Assembly: GCF_018336915.1 (NCBI RefSeq)
Contig: NZ_CP064923.1
Coordinates: 4,770,001 to 4,802,000, forward strand
Length of the DNA: 32,000 nucleotides
Source of the DNA: Acaryochloris marina S15
GTDB taxonomy: Bacteria; Cyanobacteriota; Cyanobacteriia; Thermosynechococcales; Thermosynechococcaceae
Reading direction: 5' to 3'
Both the position numbers and the translations under genes were made by a program. The notes under the pieces are model-generated. The model made no database searches and was not told where the DNA came from. It saw only the letters and a list, made by a program, of their open reading frames with translations. Shown piece by piece: positions 27,022 through 32,000 of this stretch (position 1 is the stretch's first letter; each line of letters starts with the position of its first letter).

Positions 27022-28452
27022 CTAGCTGTTGGACTCATTAATAGCAGTCCATTCCGTATGAAACGTCCCTTCCTTGTCAATCCGCTGATAGGTATGGGCA
27101 CCAAAGAAATCGCGCTGGGCCTGGGTTAGGTTTTGGGGCAGGCGATCACGGCGATAGCTATCAAAGTAATCCAAAGAAGCACTAAAGGCCGGGACTGGAA
27201 TACCGAGCTGAGCTGCAGTGGCCATCACTTCTCGCCAGGCTTGCTGACGGTCCAAAATGGTCTGCCGAAACTCAGGAGCAAGCAGTAGGTTGGCTAGGGC
27301 CGGATCATCGGCAAAGGCTGACTTGATCTTGTCCAAGAAGCTCGCCCGAATAATACAGCCCCCCTTCCAAATCCGAGAGATTTCACTCAAATTCAGATTG
27401 AAATTAAATTCCTTTGAAGCGGCACTCATCAAAGCCATGCCCTGAGCATAGGAGCAAATCTTGGAGCAATAAAGGGCATCTCGAACTTTGCCAATAAAGG
27501 CTTGCTTGTCGCCACTAAAGGTGGCCGTGGGTCCGGTCAAGATTTCAGCAGCCTTAACCCGCTCATCCTTAAAAGATGAGGTAATTCGAGCATTCACAGC
27601 TGCTGTAATCGTGGGGATGGGTACGCCTAATTCCAAGGCACTCATCACGGTCCAACGGCCTGTGCCTTTCTGGCCTGCTTTATCCAAAATTAGCTCGACT
27701 AGAGGCTGCTGGGTACCTGGATCAACGTAGGTAAAAATTTCAGCCGTAATTTCCACCAAAAAGGAATTCAGTTCATCCGTGGTGTTCCACTCACTAAACA
27801 CCTCATGCAGTTCTGTATGACTCAGTCCTAGAACATTTTTGAGCAGGTCATAGGCTTCGGCAATCAGCTGCATATCGCCATATTCAATGCCGTTATGGAC
27901 CATTTTGACGTAGTGACCTGCACCCCCTGGGCCAATATAGGTGACGCAAGGCCCGTCATCCACCTGAGCCGCAATTTTCGTCAGAATTGGAGACAGATCT
28001 TTATAGGCTGCTTCTGTGCCTCCGGGCATCAGACTGGGACCGTTCAGCGCCCCTTCTTCACCACCACTAACGCCCATGCCGATGAAGCGCAAGCCAACTG
28101 CTTCTAGCTCTTCTGTGCGGCGAACTGTATCTCCATACAAAGAGTTACCGCCATCAATCAGCACATCGCCTGGCTCTAGCATGGGCTTAAGCTGCTGAAT
28201 CACCGCATCCACAGGTGCGCCAGCTTTCACCATGATCATGATGCGTCGAGGACGGGCAAGGGATGCTACGAGTTCTTCGGGCGTAAACGCGGCGACCACT
28301 TGTCGTCCTTGGGCCCGCTCCGCCATAAAGGCATCTGTTTTTGCTCGTGTCCGATTGTAGACAGCGATGGGAAAACCATTGCGCTCAACGTTGAGGGCTA
28401 GATTTTCCCCCATGACCGCGAGGCCAATCAGTCCAAATTGTTGCTGGGGCAT
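27022..28452 (-). CDS. gnd: 6-phosphogluconate dehydrogenase, decarboxylating
   Basis: 476 aa with the N-terminal GLIGLAVMGENLALN Rossmann motif and the conserved GAGHYVKMVHNGIEYGDMQLI and GTGRWT blocks. Confidence 0.97.
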   Translation of the reverse strand: MPQQQFGLIGLAVMGENLALNVERNGFPIAVYNRTRAKTDAFMAERAQGRQVVAAFTPEELVASLARPRRIMIMVKAGAPVDAVIQQLKPMLEPGDVLIDGGNSLYGDTVRRTEELEAVGLRFIGMGVSGGEEGALNGPSLMPGGTEAAYKDLSPILTKIAAQVDDGPCVTYIGPGGAGHYVKMVHNGIEYGDMQLIAEAYDLLKNVLGLSHTELHEVFSEWNTTDELNSFLVEITAEIFTYVDPGTQQPLVELILDKAGQKGTGRWTVMSALELGVPIPTITAAVNARITSSFKDERVKAAEILTGPTATFSGDKQAFIGKVRDALYCSKICSYAQGMALMSAASKEFNFNLNLSEISRIWKGGCIIRASFLDKIKSAFADDPALANLLLAPEFRQTILDRQQAWREVMATAAQLGIPVPAFSASLDYFDSYRRDRLPQNLTQAQRDFFGAHTYQRIDKEGTFHTEWTAINESNS

Positions 28453-28706: not shown

Positions 28707-28734
28707 TCTGCTTCCTTAAATTTAAGGAAGCAGA
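28707..28734. promoter_or_regulatory. 28-bp perfect palindrome TCTGCTTCCTTAAA|TTTAAGGAAGCAGA
   Basis: Read directly: the two 14-nt arms are exact reverse complements with no spacer. It lies in the region upstream of gnd, 64 nt from the IS1 end. Its function (operator or hairpin) is unknown. Confidence 0.4.
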
Positions 28735-28789
28735 GTTATTGATTGCTCTTGTAGCTCAAAAAACACATTGCTAAATAGACTTGTTCCTC

Positions 28790-28797
28790 ATTCATTG
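28790..28797. repeat. ATTCATTG, left target-site duplication of the IS1-family element
   Basis: An identical 8-mer abuts the other IS end at 29701-29708. Confidence 0.85.
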
Positions 28798-28806
28798 GGT
28801 CGTGCA

Positions 28807-29307
28807 TCAAACAATTGTGGGGTAGGTGAGTATGTCATCCCAATGCCAAGCTCGCGAGGCTAGATCAGCACGTTGTGCCGCCGTTGTTTTAAGCCGACTG
28901 TGTGTCCAAATCCAATTGAAATAGCTGACCACTAATCGAGCAGTGACTTTGGTTTGCGCCCACACTTTGCCAAATTTGTTCTGGCGTCGATGCCATCGAC
29001 CACTGTGCTGTCGAATAATGCCATTGGTGCGTTCGAGTCGTTGAGTTCTGTCCTTGCCAATGTAATGGTCAATCTCCCAAGGCAACACTCTTTCGTAACC
29101 ACCCCAATCGTCGCTATTCCAGTCCTTGCAATCGGTCTTACCTTCAGTGCTAGTCACCAGTTCATTCAATAATGAATCGGTGTGCTTGCCCACACGACAC
29201 GAGAGGATCACGCCGCTTGTGTTTGCCAAGGTAATCGCCATCCAACAATCACCCATCTCTAGCTCATGGGGAAGACAGTGTTTTTGCTTTTTTTCACAAA
29301 GGACCAC
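28807..29307 (-). CDS. insB: IS1 family transposase catalytic part (InsB frame), expressed by -1 frameshift as InsAB'
   Basis: It lies in the -1 frame relative to insA. A shift at GTG-AAA-AAA-AGC (plus-strand T7 at 29290-29296) would give ...DEMWSFVKKKQKHC..., joined to a DDE-type core. Confidence 0.85.
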   Translation of the reverse strand: MVLCEKKQKHCLPHELEMGDCWMAITLANTSGVILSCRVGKHTDSLLNELVTSTEGKTDCKDWNSDDWGGYERVLPWEIDHYIGKDRTQRLERTNGIIRQHSGRWHRRQNKFGKVWAQTKVTARLVVSYFNWIWTHSRLKTTAAQRADLASRAWHWDDILTYPTIV

Positions 29308-29636
29308 ATTTCATCTGCACTGACATCCTCCGTTTCAACGGCTTGCACTTGGCCATTATGGAGTTGCTGAGATCGTTGGCTAGCAGCTCTTACTAGAGAG
29401 ACTACAGTGTTGTAAGCCAGGCCACTGGTCCGAGTGATACCTCGAAGACTACTCCCTTCTGCATGGGCTTGGAGAACTTGTCGGACCTGCTCTGGACTCA
29501 CCTGACGACGATAGTAAAGGGTATCAAAGCGTTCAGTAAAGGTCTGCTGGCACTCAGGACAACGGTATCGTTGAAGCATGTTGGGCATCTTGCCATGCTT
29601 GTGTGCTTTGGAATGACCGCATAGTGGGCATTGCAT
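29259..29636 (-). CDS. insA: IS1 family InsA-like protein (zinc finger + HTH), upstream frame of the transposase
   Basis: CPLCG...CPEC zinc-finger pairs and an HTH region. It ends just after the DEMWSFVKK motif at the A7 run. Confidence 0.85.
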   Translation of the reverse strand: MQCPLCGHSKAHKHGKMPNMLQRYRCPECQQTFTERFDTLYYRRQVSPEQVRQVLQAHAEGSSLRGITRTSGLAYNTVVSLVRAASQRSQQLHNGQVQAVETEDVSADEMWSFVKKSKNTVFPMS

Positions 29637-29700
29637 GGGTAGGTTAGAAGCTGAGCTGAGCCTCTAGTATACTCAACCCACAATTACTTGAGGCACGACC

Positions 29701-29708
29701 ATTCATTG
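29701..29708. repeat. ATTCATTG, right target-site duplication of the IS1-family element
   Basis: Identical to 28790-28797. Confidence 0.85.
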
Positions 29709-29834
29709 CTATCGTTGCCGTTGAATCGTCGCTCCTAACACAGAGAATCATCAACGAGTAAGTGCATGCGGAAAGCAGGCTATATCACATGCTGCTGTAT
29801 TCTACTTGGGAATGAAGAATGTAAAGCGTAGTAC

Positions 29835-30176
29835 ATGGCAAAACTACCCGAGAGTCTCCTATCCACAATTTTTGAGTTGCTTCAGAAACTTGCTAAAGGG
29901 ATTGAGGAGGCATCTGCAATTGAGTGGACTCTCTACGAGCAGCATGGTGAAACAGCTGAAACAATGGAAGAGTTAAGAGAACTACAGAATGCTAGAGAGC
30001 GTCTGGTGTCCCCTTACTCACGTTTGAACACATTATTGCTTAGAATTTTGGAGTCCCAACCTATAGCTGACCCTGCTATGCTGGAATTATTGATCCAAAC
30101 AGTAAGTCAAGCTCAAGCCTCAACTGATGCGTCTTGGGCCAGTGTTCAAGAGGTCAAACGAGTTTGGAGGCTTTGA
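29835..30176 (+). CDS. Hypothetical all-helical small protein (113 aa)
   Basis: ATG ORF with no recognised motif. Its stop overlaps the ATG of the next ORF (TGATG). Confidence 0.5.
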   Translation: MAKLPESLLSTIFELLQKLAKGIEEASAIEWTLYEQHGETAETMEELRELQNARERLVSPYSRLNTLLLRILESQPIADPAMLELLIQTVSQAQASTDASWASVQEVKRVWRL

Positions 30177-30352
30177 TGGCAGATAACAAAACAGCGATTC
30201 CAAGCATTGAAGAAAGGCAACAGGCTCTTGAAATGCTAAGAGTGAGCAACCAACAGTTGGAACTCACCGCCATAGCATTAGACAAACTGATAACCACAGT
30301 AGAGACAGGTCTAAGCCGACAATATCACCAGCGCGTGGAGAAAAGCCTCTAG
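30176..30352 (+). CDS. Hypothetical small helical protein (58 aa)
   Basis: The ATG at 30176 overlaps the upstream TGA by 1 nt and is preceded by GGAGG (30166-30170). The track's longer ORF (30134-) overlaps the previous gene and is less likely. Confidence 0.45.
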   Translation: MADNKTAIPSIEERQQALEMLRVSNQQLELTAIALDKLITTVETGLSRQYHQRVEKSL

Positions 30353-30467
30353 CAGCTCTACTTCCTAACAAGTTTGTCTCAGGGGCGCAGGTGGAATTTG
30401 AAAAATCTCCATAGAGGGTGCGCATTGTTAATGCCGTACACTCCGTATAAGCGAGACACACTAAGGT

Positions 30468-31007
30468 CTAATAGTATTTTTCAGGGAAACCATAAAGCAG
30501 TTCACTCGGATAGGCTGTATCAACTAGAAATTCAGAAACTTCGACATCAAATAATTGGCTGATCGAATACTTATCGAGGTATTCCTTGATTTGACTTGGA
30601 TTTGAAAGATCGTAGTCATTGATGTATTGATCAACAATTTCACTGCGCAAAGAATGCAGCCATCTCTGAGGAAAATCACTGTCTAAGTCTGAATCAAAAA
30701 AAGGAATTAATAAGAAGATAGGATCCAGCTTTTCTGAAGATTTACTCTGCAATATTGGCAGAGGTTGCAGAATACATATTCCTCTATTGATACGAGCATC
30801 CGACCAATGTTCGAATTTCGGTAGTGGCGGGAAAAATCTACTAATCCCTGTGTCGCAGGCGGCTCGCCATTCAGCCATACCAGATGTATAGACTAACGTT
30901 TTTTGATTGACTACATTTGTTAATGCCAGCTCTCTAAGTTGAGCGAGAGAGATAGGGCCTACAACTTCTTTGCCAACCATATAATGCCAAGCATCATTGT
31001 CGCTCAT
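30468..31007 (-). CDS. GYF_2 (DUF4339) domain-containing protein with uncharacterised C-terminal domain
   Basis: N-terminal WHYMVGKEVVGPISLAQLRELALTNVVNQKTLVYTSGMAEWRAA fits the GYF_2 pattern (W.Y..G...GP.s..eL..l......TLVW..GM..W..A). The remaining ~120 aa are unrecognised. Confidence 0.75.
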   Translation of the reverse strand: MSDNDAWHYMVGKEVVGPISLAQLRELALTNVVNQKTLVYTSGMAEWRAACDTGISRFFPPLPKFEHWSDARINRGICILQPLPILQSKSSEKLDPIFLLIPFFDSDLDSDFPQRWLHSLRSEIVDQYINDYDLSNPSQIKEYLDKYSISQLFDVEVSEFLVDTAYPSELLYGFPEKYY

Positions 31008-31199
31008 ATCAGCATTTAATTGATTTTGGTAACAGCTTCACGAAGTGCCATCAAAGGTACGAATGGCTATCAGAAAAGTTCAATAAATCGCTCAAGTCTA
31101 AGCTTTCCTTGCACAGGATGAATTAGATAACGCAACAACAAAGAGTGACTTATAAAACTATAGGTGATCTCCCATCTACCCCAAACACATAGAAAATAT

Positions 31200-31715
31200 T
31201 TAGAACGTCACATACAGCCCACTCTGTCGCGCAAGGCAACTTCTGAGGAATGAAAGGTACTCTATCGTCAAGGAATTATCCGACTTAGATAGAAGTTCAA
31301 AGGACTGGCTTACCTCATCTGGTGATTGAAAATACGATCCCATTTTCCCTGGATCAAACGGATTGAAAGAAGGTCCAACGGTTTGACCCAACAGAGCGGC
31401 TTGGGATGAGTGAGTTAAACAATCGCCACAATCAAGCCATGCAGAACCGATACCAAAATCTTTGATTGGATCATAGAAGCGGGTAATCGCAAAATCTCCA
31501 AGTGTGTGAACATCATGAACATTTTCTACTTGTGTTCGCCAATCTAAATTGAGAGGTTCCCCTTCATATGGATCAACAAGGAATCGCACATTTTCTTCTA
31601 TGTATGAGTGCAGTGGAACTACATCATTTGATGCAAGAGCATTATGTAAAATCGTGAGAAAGTCAGTCTTAAAAAACTGCCAATCAAATTCGAAAGCTTT
31701 ATGCTCCATCGACAT
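31200..31715 (-). CDS. Hypothetical protein (171 aa), no recognised domain
   Basis: Clean ATG ORF on the same strand as, and between, the TIR-like gene tail and the GYF_2 gene. AT-rich. Confidence 0.6.
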   Translation of the reverse strand: MSMEHKAFEFDWQFFKTDFLTILHNALASNDVVPLHSYIEENVRFLVDPYEGEPLNLDWRTQVENVHDVHTLGDFAITRFYDPIKDFGIGSAWLDCGDCLTHSSQAALLGQTVGPSFNPFDPGKMGSYFQSPDEVSQSFELLSKSDNSLTIEYLSFLRSCLARQSGLYVTF

Positions 31716-31815
31716 AAATCAAAGTTGGATCGGTTAACGCCCAAAATCACCGGGCCGCTGCTAGCGACGCTCCATTTAAATCTGACTGAATCGGCGGCTC
31801 CGGTGCATGTATTTG

Positions 31816-32000
31816 TTAGGCATTTTTTACGCCGAGTGCAAAATCGAGTGCGCGCTGAAAACGGGATAAAGGGATTCCGTGCTCCGTTCGTTCTAAGTCA
31901 GACGAGTGATAGTTCAGCCAATGATATTTCTTCAACGCCTCTGGTGGTTCACAGTCTGTGTCCAACAAAACGGGAATAATGTAGATTTCGCCCTCTGGCA
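31816..32000 (-). CDS. 3' end of a probable TIR-domain protein (gene continues beyond window end)
   Basis: The minus-strand frame is open from the window edge (codons from 31998) to the TAA at 31818-31816. It encodes PEGEIYIIPVLLDTDCEPPEALKKYHWLNYHSSDLERTEHGIPLSRFQRALDFALGVKNA. The IIPV.L....C..P..L....W.. then G....L..AL pattern matches the C-terminal third of bacterial TIR_2 domains as I recall them. It is not in the ORF track because it is truncated. Confidence 0.5.
   Translation of the reverse strand, partial: PEGEIYIIPVLLDTDCEPPEALKKYHWLNYHSSDLERTEHGIPLSRFQRALDFALGVKNA

Follow-up and report, generated by a model that had tools for sequence, protein, structure and literature searches.

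A strain-variable mosaic of conflict-type modules beside gnd in Acaryochloris marina S15, with a probable orphan immunity gene and a separate TIR cassette

We analysed an accessory islet at positions 29709-32000 of a 32,000-nucleotide (nt) stretch of the Acaryochloris marina S15 genome (hereafter the window, whose positions are used throughout). With a probability of roughly three in four, the islet is a strain-variable conflict mosaic made up of an IS1 element, a plasmid-type pair of small genes, a GYF_2-domain protein, an orphan immunity gene directed against an RHS toxin, and a separate TIR cassette. A preliminary description, made from the letters of the window, had proposed that the TIR gene cut by the window end, a 171-amino-acid (aa) protein and the GYF_2 protein form one uncharacterised TIR-associated system. 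This proposal was not supported: the three genes show no conserved linkage, either within the species or across genomes, and the inference of a three-gene system therefore fails. A false lead is thereby removed, in that there is no new three-gene TIR system and neither the 171-aa nor the GYF_2 genes are markers for TIR systems.

Results

The 171-aa family and its toxin partners

The 171-aa protein had been taken for an orphan with no recognisable motif. On the contrary, it has more than 424 homologues in many phyla and these share strongly conserved motifs, with H5, PYEGEPL, DPGKMGSYFQ and a C-terminal GLYVTF invariant. A scan of species-representative genomes yielded 78 loci of the family, again from many phyla, and clustering of the neighbouring genes revealed a recurrent same-strand gene directly upstream whose products share a conserved C-terminal domain of ~140 aa. 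A profile of the domain located it directly upstream of the family gene at 15 of the 78 loci; at 13 of these the gap lies between -37 and +40 bp. The toxin-adjacent loci, Pseudomonas trivialis L075 among them, span Planctomycetota, Pseudomonadota, Cyanobacteria, Acidobacteriota, a Clostridiales metagenome-assembled genome (MAG) and an unclassified MAG. The upstream proteins have the architecture of polymorphic toxins: in the protein of locus L053 the C-terminal domain occupies residues 1841-1994, behind 13 YD repeats, an RHS core and an Rhs-associated core, and in that of locus L019 it is preceded by a PT-HINT pre-toxin domain. The arrangement recurs in an independent plasmid collection: the toxin domain and the family each occur in one record only, and this record, from Kovacikia minuta (NZ_CP083583.1, toxin C-terminal domain at 1137968-1138384), is the same for both, with 22 bp between the two co-directional genes. 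The position immediately downstream of a toxin is held by the family at these 15 loci and in Kovacikia, and not by the window copy.

The two partners also differ in charge. The isoelectric point (pI) of the 171-aa family is 4.0-4.8 in 24 of 25 aligned members and 5.6 in the remaining one, that of the toxin domain mostly 8-10. Adjacency, architecture and charge of this kind typify toxin–immunity pairs and the orphan immunity genes of strain-variable polyimmunity loci (PMC3482391). At several of the 15 loci only fragments of the toxin C-terminal domain stand beside the family gene, as is typical of displaced toxin/immunity modules, and among the 149 immediate neighbours of the family scanned with Pfam are members of the Imm33-like and SUKH immunity families. 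We infer that the 171-aa protein would bind and neutralise the RHS/PT-HINT toxin domain, in keeping with the complementary charges. Because no toxin stands upstream of it, the window gene is an orphan, and it would serve as orphan immunity against toxins delivered by competitors.

In nine sequences of the toxin domain, E23, P86-D87 and [DE]98-D99-K100 are invariant, which suggests a nuclease of the PD-(D/E)xK type. The domain matched neither the Tox-REase nor the PDDEXK models of Pfam and had no sequence match in the PDB. The Rehh toxin of a preprint was considered as a match and set aside, as it is a divergent HNH DNase whose motif differs.

Searches for distant relatives of the 171-aa protein were made with an AlphaFold2 model of high confidence (predicted local distance difference test score, pLDDT, 92) and with sequence profiles. 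Foldseek matches of the model to the DNA mimic DMP12 (E=0.3, 49 residues) and to YfbM (E~1) were not significant and count as leads only, and PDB searches with the family profile and with the toxin profile gave chance-level matches only. The name DUF1877, which one source gives to a Chamaesiphon homologue, was not adopted, Pfam matching none of the aligned members. Exact-sequence look-up of the 171-aa protein gave no result. In Nostoc (loci L040, L041, L057, L062, L064, L069 and L023), the family gene lies between a GNAT acetyltransferase gene and an opposite-strand gene of the PD-(D/E)xK superfamily.

Several observations weigh against an immunity function and the mosaic built around it. The family is unusually conserved for an immunity protein (~40% identity across phyla, 22 invariant columns), and ~80% of its members (63/78 loci) have no toxin nearby. 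No toxin is found near the family gene in the Nostoc loci, and in both Nostoc and Acaryochloris the gene looks stably inherited and chromosomal. The protein belongs to no described Imm family, with 0 of 25 aligned members matching Pfam and no match in NCBIfam, and its model returned no significant fold match in the PDB. Neither partner is recognised by a known toxin or immunity model in Pfam or NCBIfam, and the assignment of the partner as a nuclease is a motif-based one. Lastly, the co-directional minus-strand genes lack clear terminators between them, so that the TIR, 171-aa and GYF_2 genes may share a transcript in A. marina S15.

The main rival to orphan immunity is a non-immunity role in the many toxin-free genomes, with the family acting as a housekeeping or stress protein and the adjacency to toxins being secondary. 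This would account for the missing toxins and the high sequence conservation. It would also suit the conserved synteny in Nostoc, where the GNAT and PD-(D/E)xK-family neighbours recur in 7-8 loci, and the weak likeness to YfbM/DUF1877, whose function is unknown. However, tight same-strand adjacency to one specific toxin domain recurs across several phyla, modules of a toxin fragment and a family gene are what displaced cassettes typically leave, and other immunity families occur among the neighbours. We therefore regard a housekeeping role as unlikely, while it survives better than any other alternative.

Strain haplotypes between gnd and the coq4-like gene

Exact-sequence look-up of the GYF_2 protein led to a public contig of 4240 bp (L001); it matches window 29673-32000 (2328 bp) at 100% identity and extends 1912 bp past the window end. 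Together with related haplotypes it places the islet in what appears to be a strain-variable hotspot of ~5 kb running from gnd to a coq4-like gene, of which the islet would be the gnd-proximal half.

At the nucleotide level, the flanking core of the related strains L002 and L003 is ~93% and ~91% identical to that of the window, respectively, and the 171-aa protein is 92% identical. In these strains 175 nt separate gnd from the 171-aa gene; the IS1 element, the small-gene pair and the GYF_2 gene are all missing, and open reading frames (ORFs) of 139, 39 and 96 aa stand upstream of the 171-aa gene, where the TIR genes stand in the window strain. The corresponding blastn blocks pair L002 10571-20516 with window 28573-18637 and L002 9896-10539 with window 31820-31180. 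In haplotype L082 the order is a 94-aa ORF, the 171-aa gene, the GYF_2 gene and a Gp49/HI1420 toxin-antitoxin pair, and the TIR genes are missing. A fourth arrangement, on metagenome contig Ga0114957_1075861 (L089), has the gnd flank (window 28587) fused to window 30071, and retains the last 34 codons (the last third) of the 113-aa gene of the small-gene pair together with an intact 58-aa gene. The sole constant gene among the compared haplotypes is that for the 171-aa protein; the TIR genes, the GYF_2 gene, the small-gene pair and IS1 vary independently. The hotspot would then be a mosaic of modules gained and lost one by one, and not a single operon-encoded system.

The TIR cassette is set between two flanks common to all haplotypes. 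Its downstream junction coincides with the stop codon of the TIR gene that runs out of the window (31816-31820), where homology with the other strains ends, and its upstream junction falls ~10 nt ahead of the first TIR start codon. The coordinates of the islet features are collected in Table 1.

Table 1. Features of the islet and its surroundings in window coordinates.
Feature	Position	Strand	Basis or remark
Haplotype-specific segment	28574..31179	.	224-bp spacer, IS1, small-ORF pair and GYF_2 gene; not in L002/L003 (blastn, gene maps)
IS1-family insertion sequence	28798..29700	-	InsA-like frame 29259-29636; DDE frame 28807-29307
Gene for 113-aa helical protein, first of pair	29835..30176	+	ORF call
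Gene for 58-aa partner	30176..30352	+	ATG overlaps the 113-aa stop by 1 nt (TGATG)
Gene for 179-aa GYF_2 protein	30468..31007	-	N-terminal GYF_2 at residues 7-51; C-terminal domain of ~100 aa
Gene for 171-aa acidic protein (pI 4.5)	31200..31715	-	No toxin adjoining
Intergenic region upstream of 171-aa gene, ~100 nt	31716..31820	-	Kept among haplotypes; three-way alignment
Tail of 283-aa tandem-TIR gene, last 60 codons and stop	31816..32000	-	Translation; remainder on L001

Some further features of the variable site were observed. The flank upstream of the cassette is common to three haplotypes up to AATTATAGTTA (L001 1-97, L002 8972-9057, L082 1494-1578), and the first gene of each cassette begins ~10-25 nt from this junction. 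The shared flank contains a promoter-like TTAAGA-18-TATAGT, a kind of site no commoner here than in shuffled sequence. The toxin-antitoxin pair of L082 (3368-3973; Gp49 HigB-like, HI1420 HigA-like) lies just downstream of the GYF_2 stop, between matches to window 30454 and 30441. The 96-aa ORF of L002 (9090-9380) encodes an acidic MafI-like protein (NCBIfam E=2.7e-6; 27 bits, just under the cut-off of 31); its presence beside the 171-aa gene hints that the site collects immunity genes.

Insertion sequence, small-gene pair and GYF_2 protein

An IS1 element with a retained target duplication had been reported at the islet edge, and both the repeats and the domain matches confirm it. The terminal inverted repeats of 24 nt (28798-28821 and 29677-29700) are 88% complementary and the 9-bp target duplication CATTCATTG borders the element at 28789-28797 and 29700-29708. 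The frames match Pfam DDE_Tnp_IS1 (1.2e-9) and Zn_ribbon_InsA as well as NCBIfam transpos_IS1, and an A7 slippery run (~29290-29296) falls within the overlap of the InsA-like and DDE frames. All the marks of the IS1 family are present, namely the InsA zinc ribbon, the DDE_Tnp_IS1 frame, the inverted repeats and a target duplication of 8-9 bp. Its likeness to the family lies in the two overlapping frames, the A7 run, the terminal inverted repeats and the 9-bp duplication, and nothing notable sets it apart; it is a cyanobacterial member that scores below the NCBIfam equivalog cut-off because each of its two frames was scored on its own. The element appears intact in its frames, slippery run and inverted repeats, and it would have inserted by simple transposition, keeping its duplication. 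Contig L001 ends inside the right end of IS1 (window 29673), which may be an assembly break at a repeat; in that case the element would be multi-copy in that genome. A 224-bp spacer separates IS1 from the gnd flank and contains a perfect 14+14-nt palindrome (TCTGCTTCCTTAAA/TTTAAGGAAGCAGA, 28707..28734, plus strand). The spacer with its palindrome is not present in strain L002.

The plus-strand pair of small ORFs noted in the preliminary description is real. Relatives of the 113-aa protein were found by tblastn on Planktothrix, Gloeobacter and Calothrix plasmids (28-42% identity), each with a 57-74-aa gene that overlaps the 3′ end and whose product aligns with the 58-aa protein. On an 8.8-kb Gloeobacter plasmid the pair comes after a gene whose 482-aa product matches HTH_36 weakly (E=5e-4, under the Pfam cut-off), and in Calothrix it is close to a KfrB-domain gene. 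This recurrence of the overlapping pair on cyanobacterial plasmids points to a plasmid-borne module, and the islet pair would be of the same type. The two genes had no significant match in Pfam, PADLOC, NCBIfam or PHROG. They match no known toxin or antitoxin families, and their resemblance to a type II toxin-antitoxin pair is confined to the overlapping two-gene layout. A weak tblastn match (E=0.031) linked a Gloeobacter plasmid protein with the Cap12-type TIR region; it was dismissed, as the family hidden Markov model (HMM) did not reproduce it.

The GYF_2 protein was borne out as an N-terminal GYF_2 domain joined to a C-terminal domain of unknown kind. The former matches PF14237 (E=5e-13, 49 bits against a gathering threshold of 25.8), and in Foldseek the N-terminal domain of the model, whose pLDDT is only 72, matches solved GYF domains (7z3c, GltJ, GIGYF). 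The C-terminal domain matches nothing and has no relatives with known function. The protein is very rare: it has one close relative, and a search of 1.84 billion representative proteins found only two distant ones of full length. Both distant relatives have neighbourhoods without TIR genes and without the 171-aa family. A search of the literature on bacterial GYF_2 proteins in defence found nothing relevant. We suggest that this rare protein would constitute a module of its own. No relatives of the 113-aa or GYF_2 families were found on viral contigs.

Base composition and selection

The islet holds up as a compositionally atypical accessory stretch with conflict-type genes. At 42.7% guanine plus cytosine (GC) it is the lowest-GC 2.3-kb stretch in the window (gnd at 27022-28452, 51.4%; whole window, 47.2%). 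The drop in GC had been correctly noticed; its size, given as ~18 points (37-40% against 57%), was overstated and is ~5-9 points by our measurement. Between strains the islet genes are under purifying selection, with ratios of non-synonymous to synonymous substitution (dN/dS) of 0.12-0.26 against 0.011 for gnd. By gene, the values are 0.21-0.26 for the 171-aa gene, 0.13 for the GYF_2 gene and 0.12 for the 58-aa gene, the last measured against metagenome variant L089. Synonymous divergence (dS) is 0.19-0.33 in the islet genes, with 0.19-0.26 in those at 30468-31715, and 0.64 in gnd, which is compatible with accessory genes exchanged more recently than the flanking core diverged. No transfer RNA gene or Rfam RNA marks an integration site, promoter and terminator scans returned no more sites than in shuffled sequence, and no convincing promoters or terminators were found between the co-directional minus-strand genes. 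The islet had no DNA match among plasmid records and its genes no match in PHROG.

Segment 28574-31179 might instead be the decaying remnant of an integrated plasmid or mobile element whose genes no longer function. Elsewhere the 113/58-aa pair is carried by cyanobacterial plasmids, IS1 lies alongside, GC is low and the 113-aa gene is truncated in L089, all of which would fit. Against this, the ORFs are intact and evolve under purifying selection (dN/dS 0.12-0.13), the genes that precede the pair on the plasmids have left no detectable trace, and no plasmid record matches at the DNA level. A decaying remnant is thus improbable, slightly more so than a housekeeping role for the 171-aa family.

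The TIR cassette and the test of linkage

The minus-strand set of the preliminary description, a gene tail, the 171-aa ORF and the GYF_2 gene, was reproduced by our ORF calls, as were the intergenic gaps of 100 nt and 192 nt. Within the window, the 60-aa tail alone gives a weak TIR_2 match (E=0.015), its 16 bits falling short of the cut-off of 28. With the extension provided by L001 the whole gene was recovered, together with a second TIR gene upstream of it, and the HMM search that could have denied the full-length protein a TIR domain instead placed a full TIR_2 at residues 141-256 of its 283 aa (E=4.5e-31, 108 bits). Its N-terminal half contains a second, weaker TIR_2-like domain (E=1.8e-5). 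The TIR identity of the cut gene, first suggested by its C-terminus, is therefore firm.

The upstream gene (L001 108-1124) encodes a 341-aa protein with a CAP12-PCTIR_TIR domain (Pfam, 2.8e-26). In PADLOC it matches the TIR effector of the cyclic oligonucleotide-based anti-phage signalling system (CBASS; 3e-43) and PycTIR (6e-33). An Acaryochloris marina protein at NCBI matches it with 100% identity; exact-sequence look-up of that NCBI protein gave no result. The C-terminal ~190 aa of the 341-aa protein are CHAT-like, and Pfam CHAT was found in two relatives. In the alignment of this Cap12-type/CHAT-like family, the position expected to hold the catalytic histidine varies (S, Q, M, P or H), as does the second cysteine position, and for this reason the CHAT-like domain is probably non-catalytic (degenerate). 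The TIR motif RGNVxFExG is invariant, including its glutamate. Homologues of the 341-aa protein have varying neighbours, with a TIR_2 gene nearby in only one of the three examined. The two genes would form a cassette just past the window, at a site of replacement that small genes occupy in other strains. Their products are probably stand-alone NAD+-consuming defence effectors, an NADase activity being expected from their domains.

We then examined whether homologues of the 171-aa and GYF_2 proteins co-occur with TIR genes. At none of the 78 loci was a relative of the TIR, Cap12-type, GYF_2, 113-aa or 58-aa proteins found within 6 kb of the family member, and the Pfam scan of the 149 immediate neighbours revealed no TIR family matching two or more of them. 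PADLOC, run on the islet ORFs, matched no model to the TIR tail, to the 171-aa and GYF_2 proteins or to the 58-aa protein (scanned as its 72-aa TTG-start ORF); a PbeC match of the 113-aa protein was at chance level and was dismissed.

These results bear on the single TIR-associated anti-phage system proposed for the TIR, 171-aa and GYF_2 genes. In its favour are the shared strand and short gaps, the confirmed TIR domain, the lack of clear terminators between the genes, and the fact that the 171-aa and GYF_2 genes adjoin in two haplotypes (the window and L082). However, L002, L003 and L082 keep the 171-aa gene without the TIR genes, and L002 and L003 do so without GYF_2. Beyond these strains neither a TIR nor a GYF_2 relative accompanies the family within 6 kb at any of the 78 loci, no TIR family recurs in its immediate neighbourhood, relatives of the GYF_2 protein adjoin neither TIR genes nor the 171-aa family, and the 171-aa and GYF_2 proteins have no PADLOC match. 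A single system is consequently very improbable. Least probable of all is that the 171-aa protein is the antitoxin or immunity factor of the adjoining TIR NADase in a two-gene, toxin–antitoxin-like module: it is acidic and its gene follows the TIR gene after 100 nt on the same strand, with the TIR gene in the upstream position held by toxins in other genomes, but the cognate upstream domain elsewhere is a single well-conserved non-TIR domain, related strains pair the 171-aa gene with upstream non-TIR small ORFs, and no relative of the TIR protein occurs near any other family member.

Discussion

Read as a conflict mosaic, the islet gives a widespread, unannotated family a testable function, namely immunity to a specific RHS-borne toxin domain. 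Both the 171-aa family and its partner toxin domain lie outside the coverage of Pfam and NCBIfam. A compact cyanobacterial hotspot whose defence and immunity cargo is exchanged between strains should also be useful for studies of pan-genomes and defence islands. As a hotspot it is ordinary in kind and unsurprising; its interest is modest and for the specialist, residing in the unnamed toxin–immunity family and in the architecture of a Cap12-type TIR domain fused to a degenerate CHAT-like domain. More tentatively, the locus could represent a small combined conflict hotspot in a cyanobacterium, uniting an undescribed, phylum-spanning RHS toxin–immunity pair with a cassette-exchange site between coq4 and gnd, at which anti-phage (TIR) and anti-bacterial (immunity) modules are swapped between fixed flanks, the upstream flank perhaps supplying a shared promoter. 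We put this fuller proposal somewhat short of even odds.

Cap12 and PycTIR effectors are TIR NADases activated by cyclic nucleotides, and ThsB is the TIR sensor protein of Thoeris. The 341-aa protein resembles the TIR effectors of CBASS (Cap12) and of the pyrimidine cyclase system for anti-phage resistance (Pycsar; PycTIR) in its CAP12-PCTIR_TIR domain and in the invariant glutamate of RGNVxFExG. It differs in that its partner domain is degenerate and CHAT-like, and not SAVED, STING or transmembrane, and in that its NCBIfam Cap12 score (121 bits) is far under the equivalog cut-off of 450. Moreover, neither a CD-NTase nor a pyrimidine cyclase gene is present in the available sequence (L001 and the window), and the cassette is bounded by backbone common to cassette-free strains; we therefore do not assign it to CBASS or Pycsar. 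Likewise, the 283-aa protein shares TIR_2 and weak model matches (E 1e-4 to 1e-2) with ThsB of Thoeris, but it is a tandem-TIR protein, and neither L001 nor the window contains a ThsA-type effector (SIR2, or Macro with SLOG).

The closest parallel to the islet is in polymorphic-toxin biology. Strain-variable polyimmunity loci with orphan immunity genes are a concept of Zhang et al. 2012 (PMC3482391). Like the immunity proteins described there, the 171-aa family consists of small acidic proteins encoded directly downstream of RHS/PT-HINT toxin C-terminal domains; unlike them, it corresponds to no described Imm family, and its partner to no Tox or Ntox family. The likeness extends to the polyimmunity loci themselves (PMC3482391), in that the family gene also occurs alone or beside toxin fragments, that gene content varies between strains, and that MafI-like, Imm33-like and SUKH genes are encountered. 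The A. marina locus differs from such loci (PMC3482391) in having at most one or two immunity-like genes and no extended array, and in carrying, in addition, TIR genes, a GYF_2 protein and a plasmid-type gene pair.

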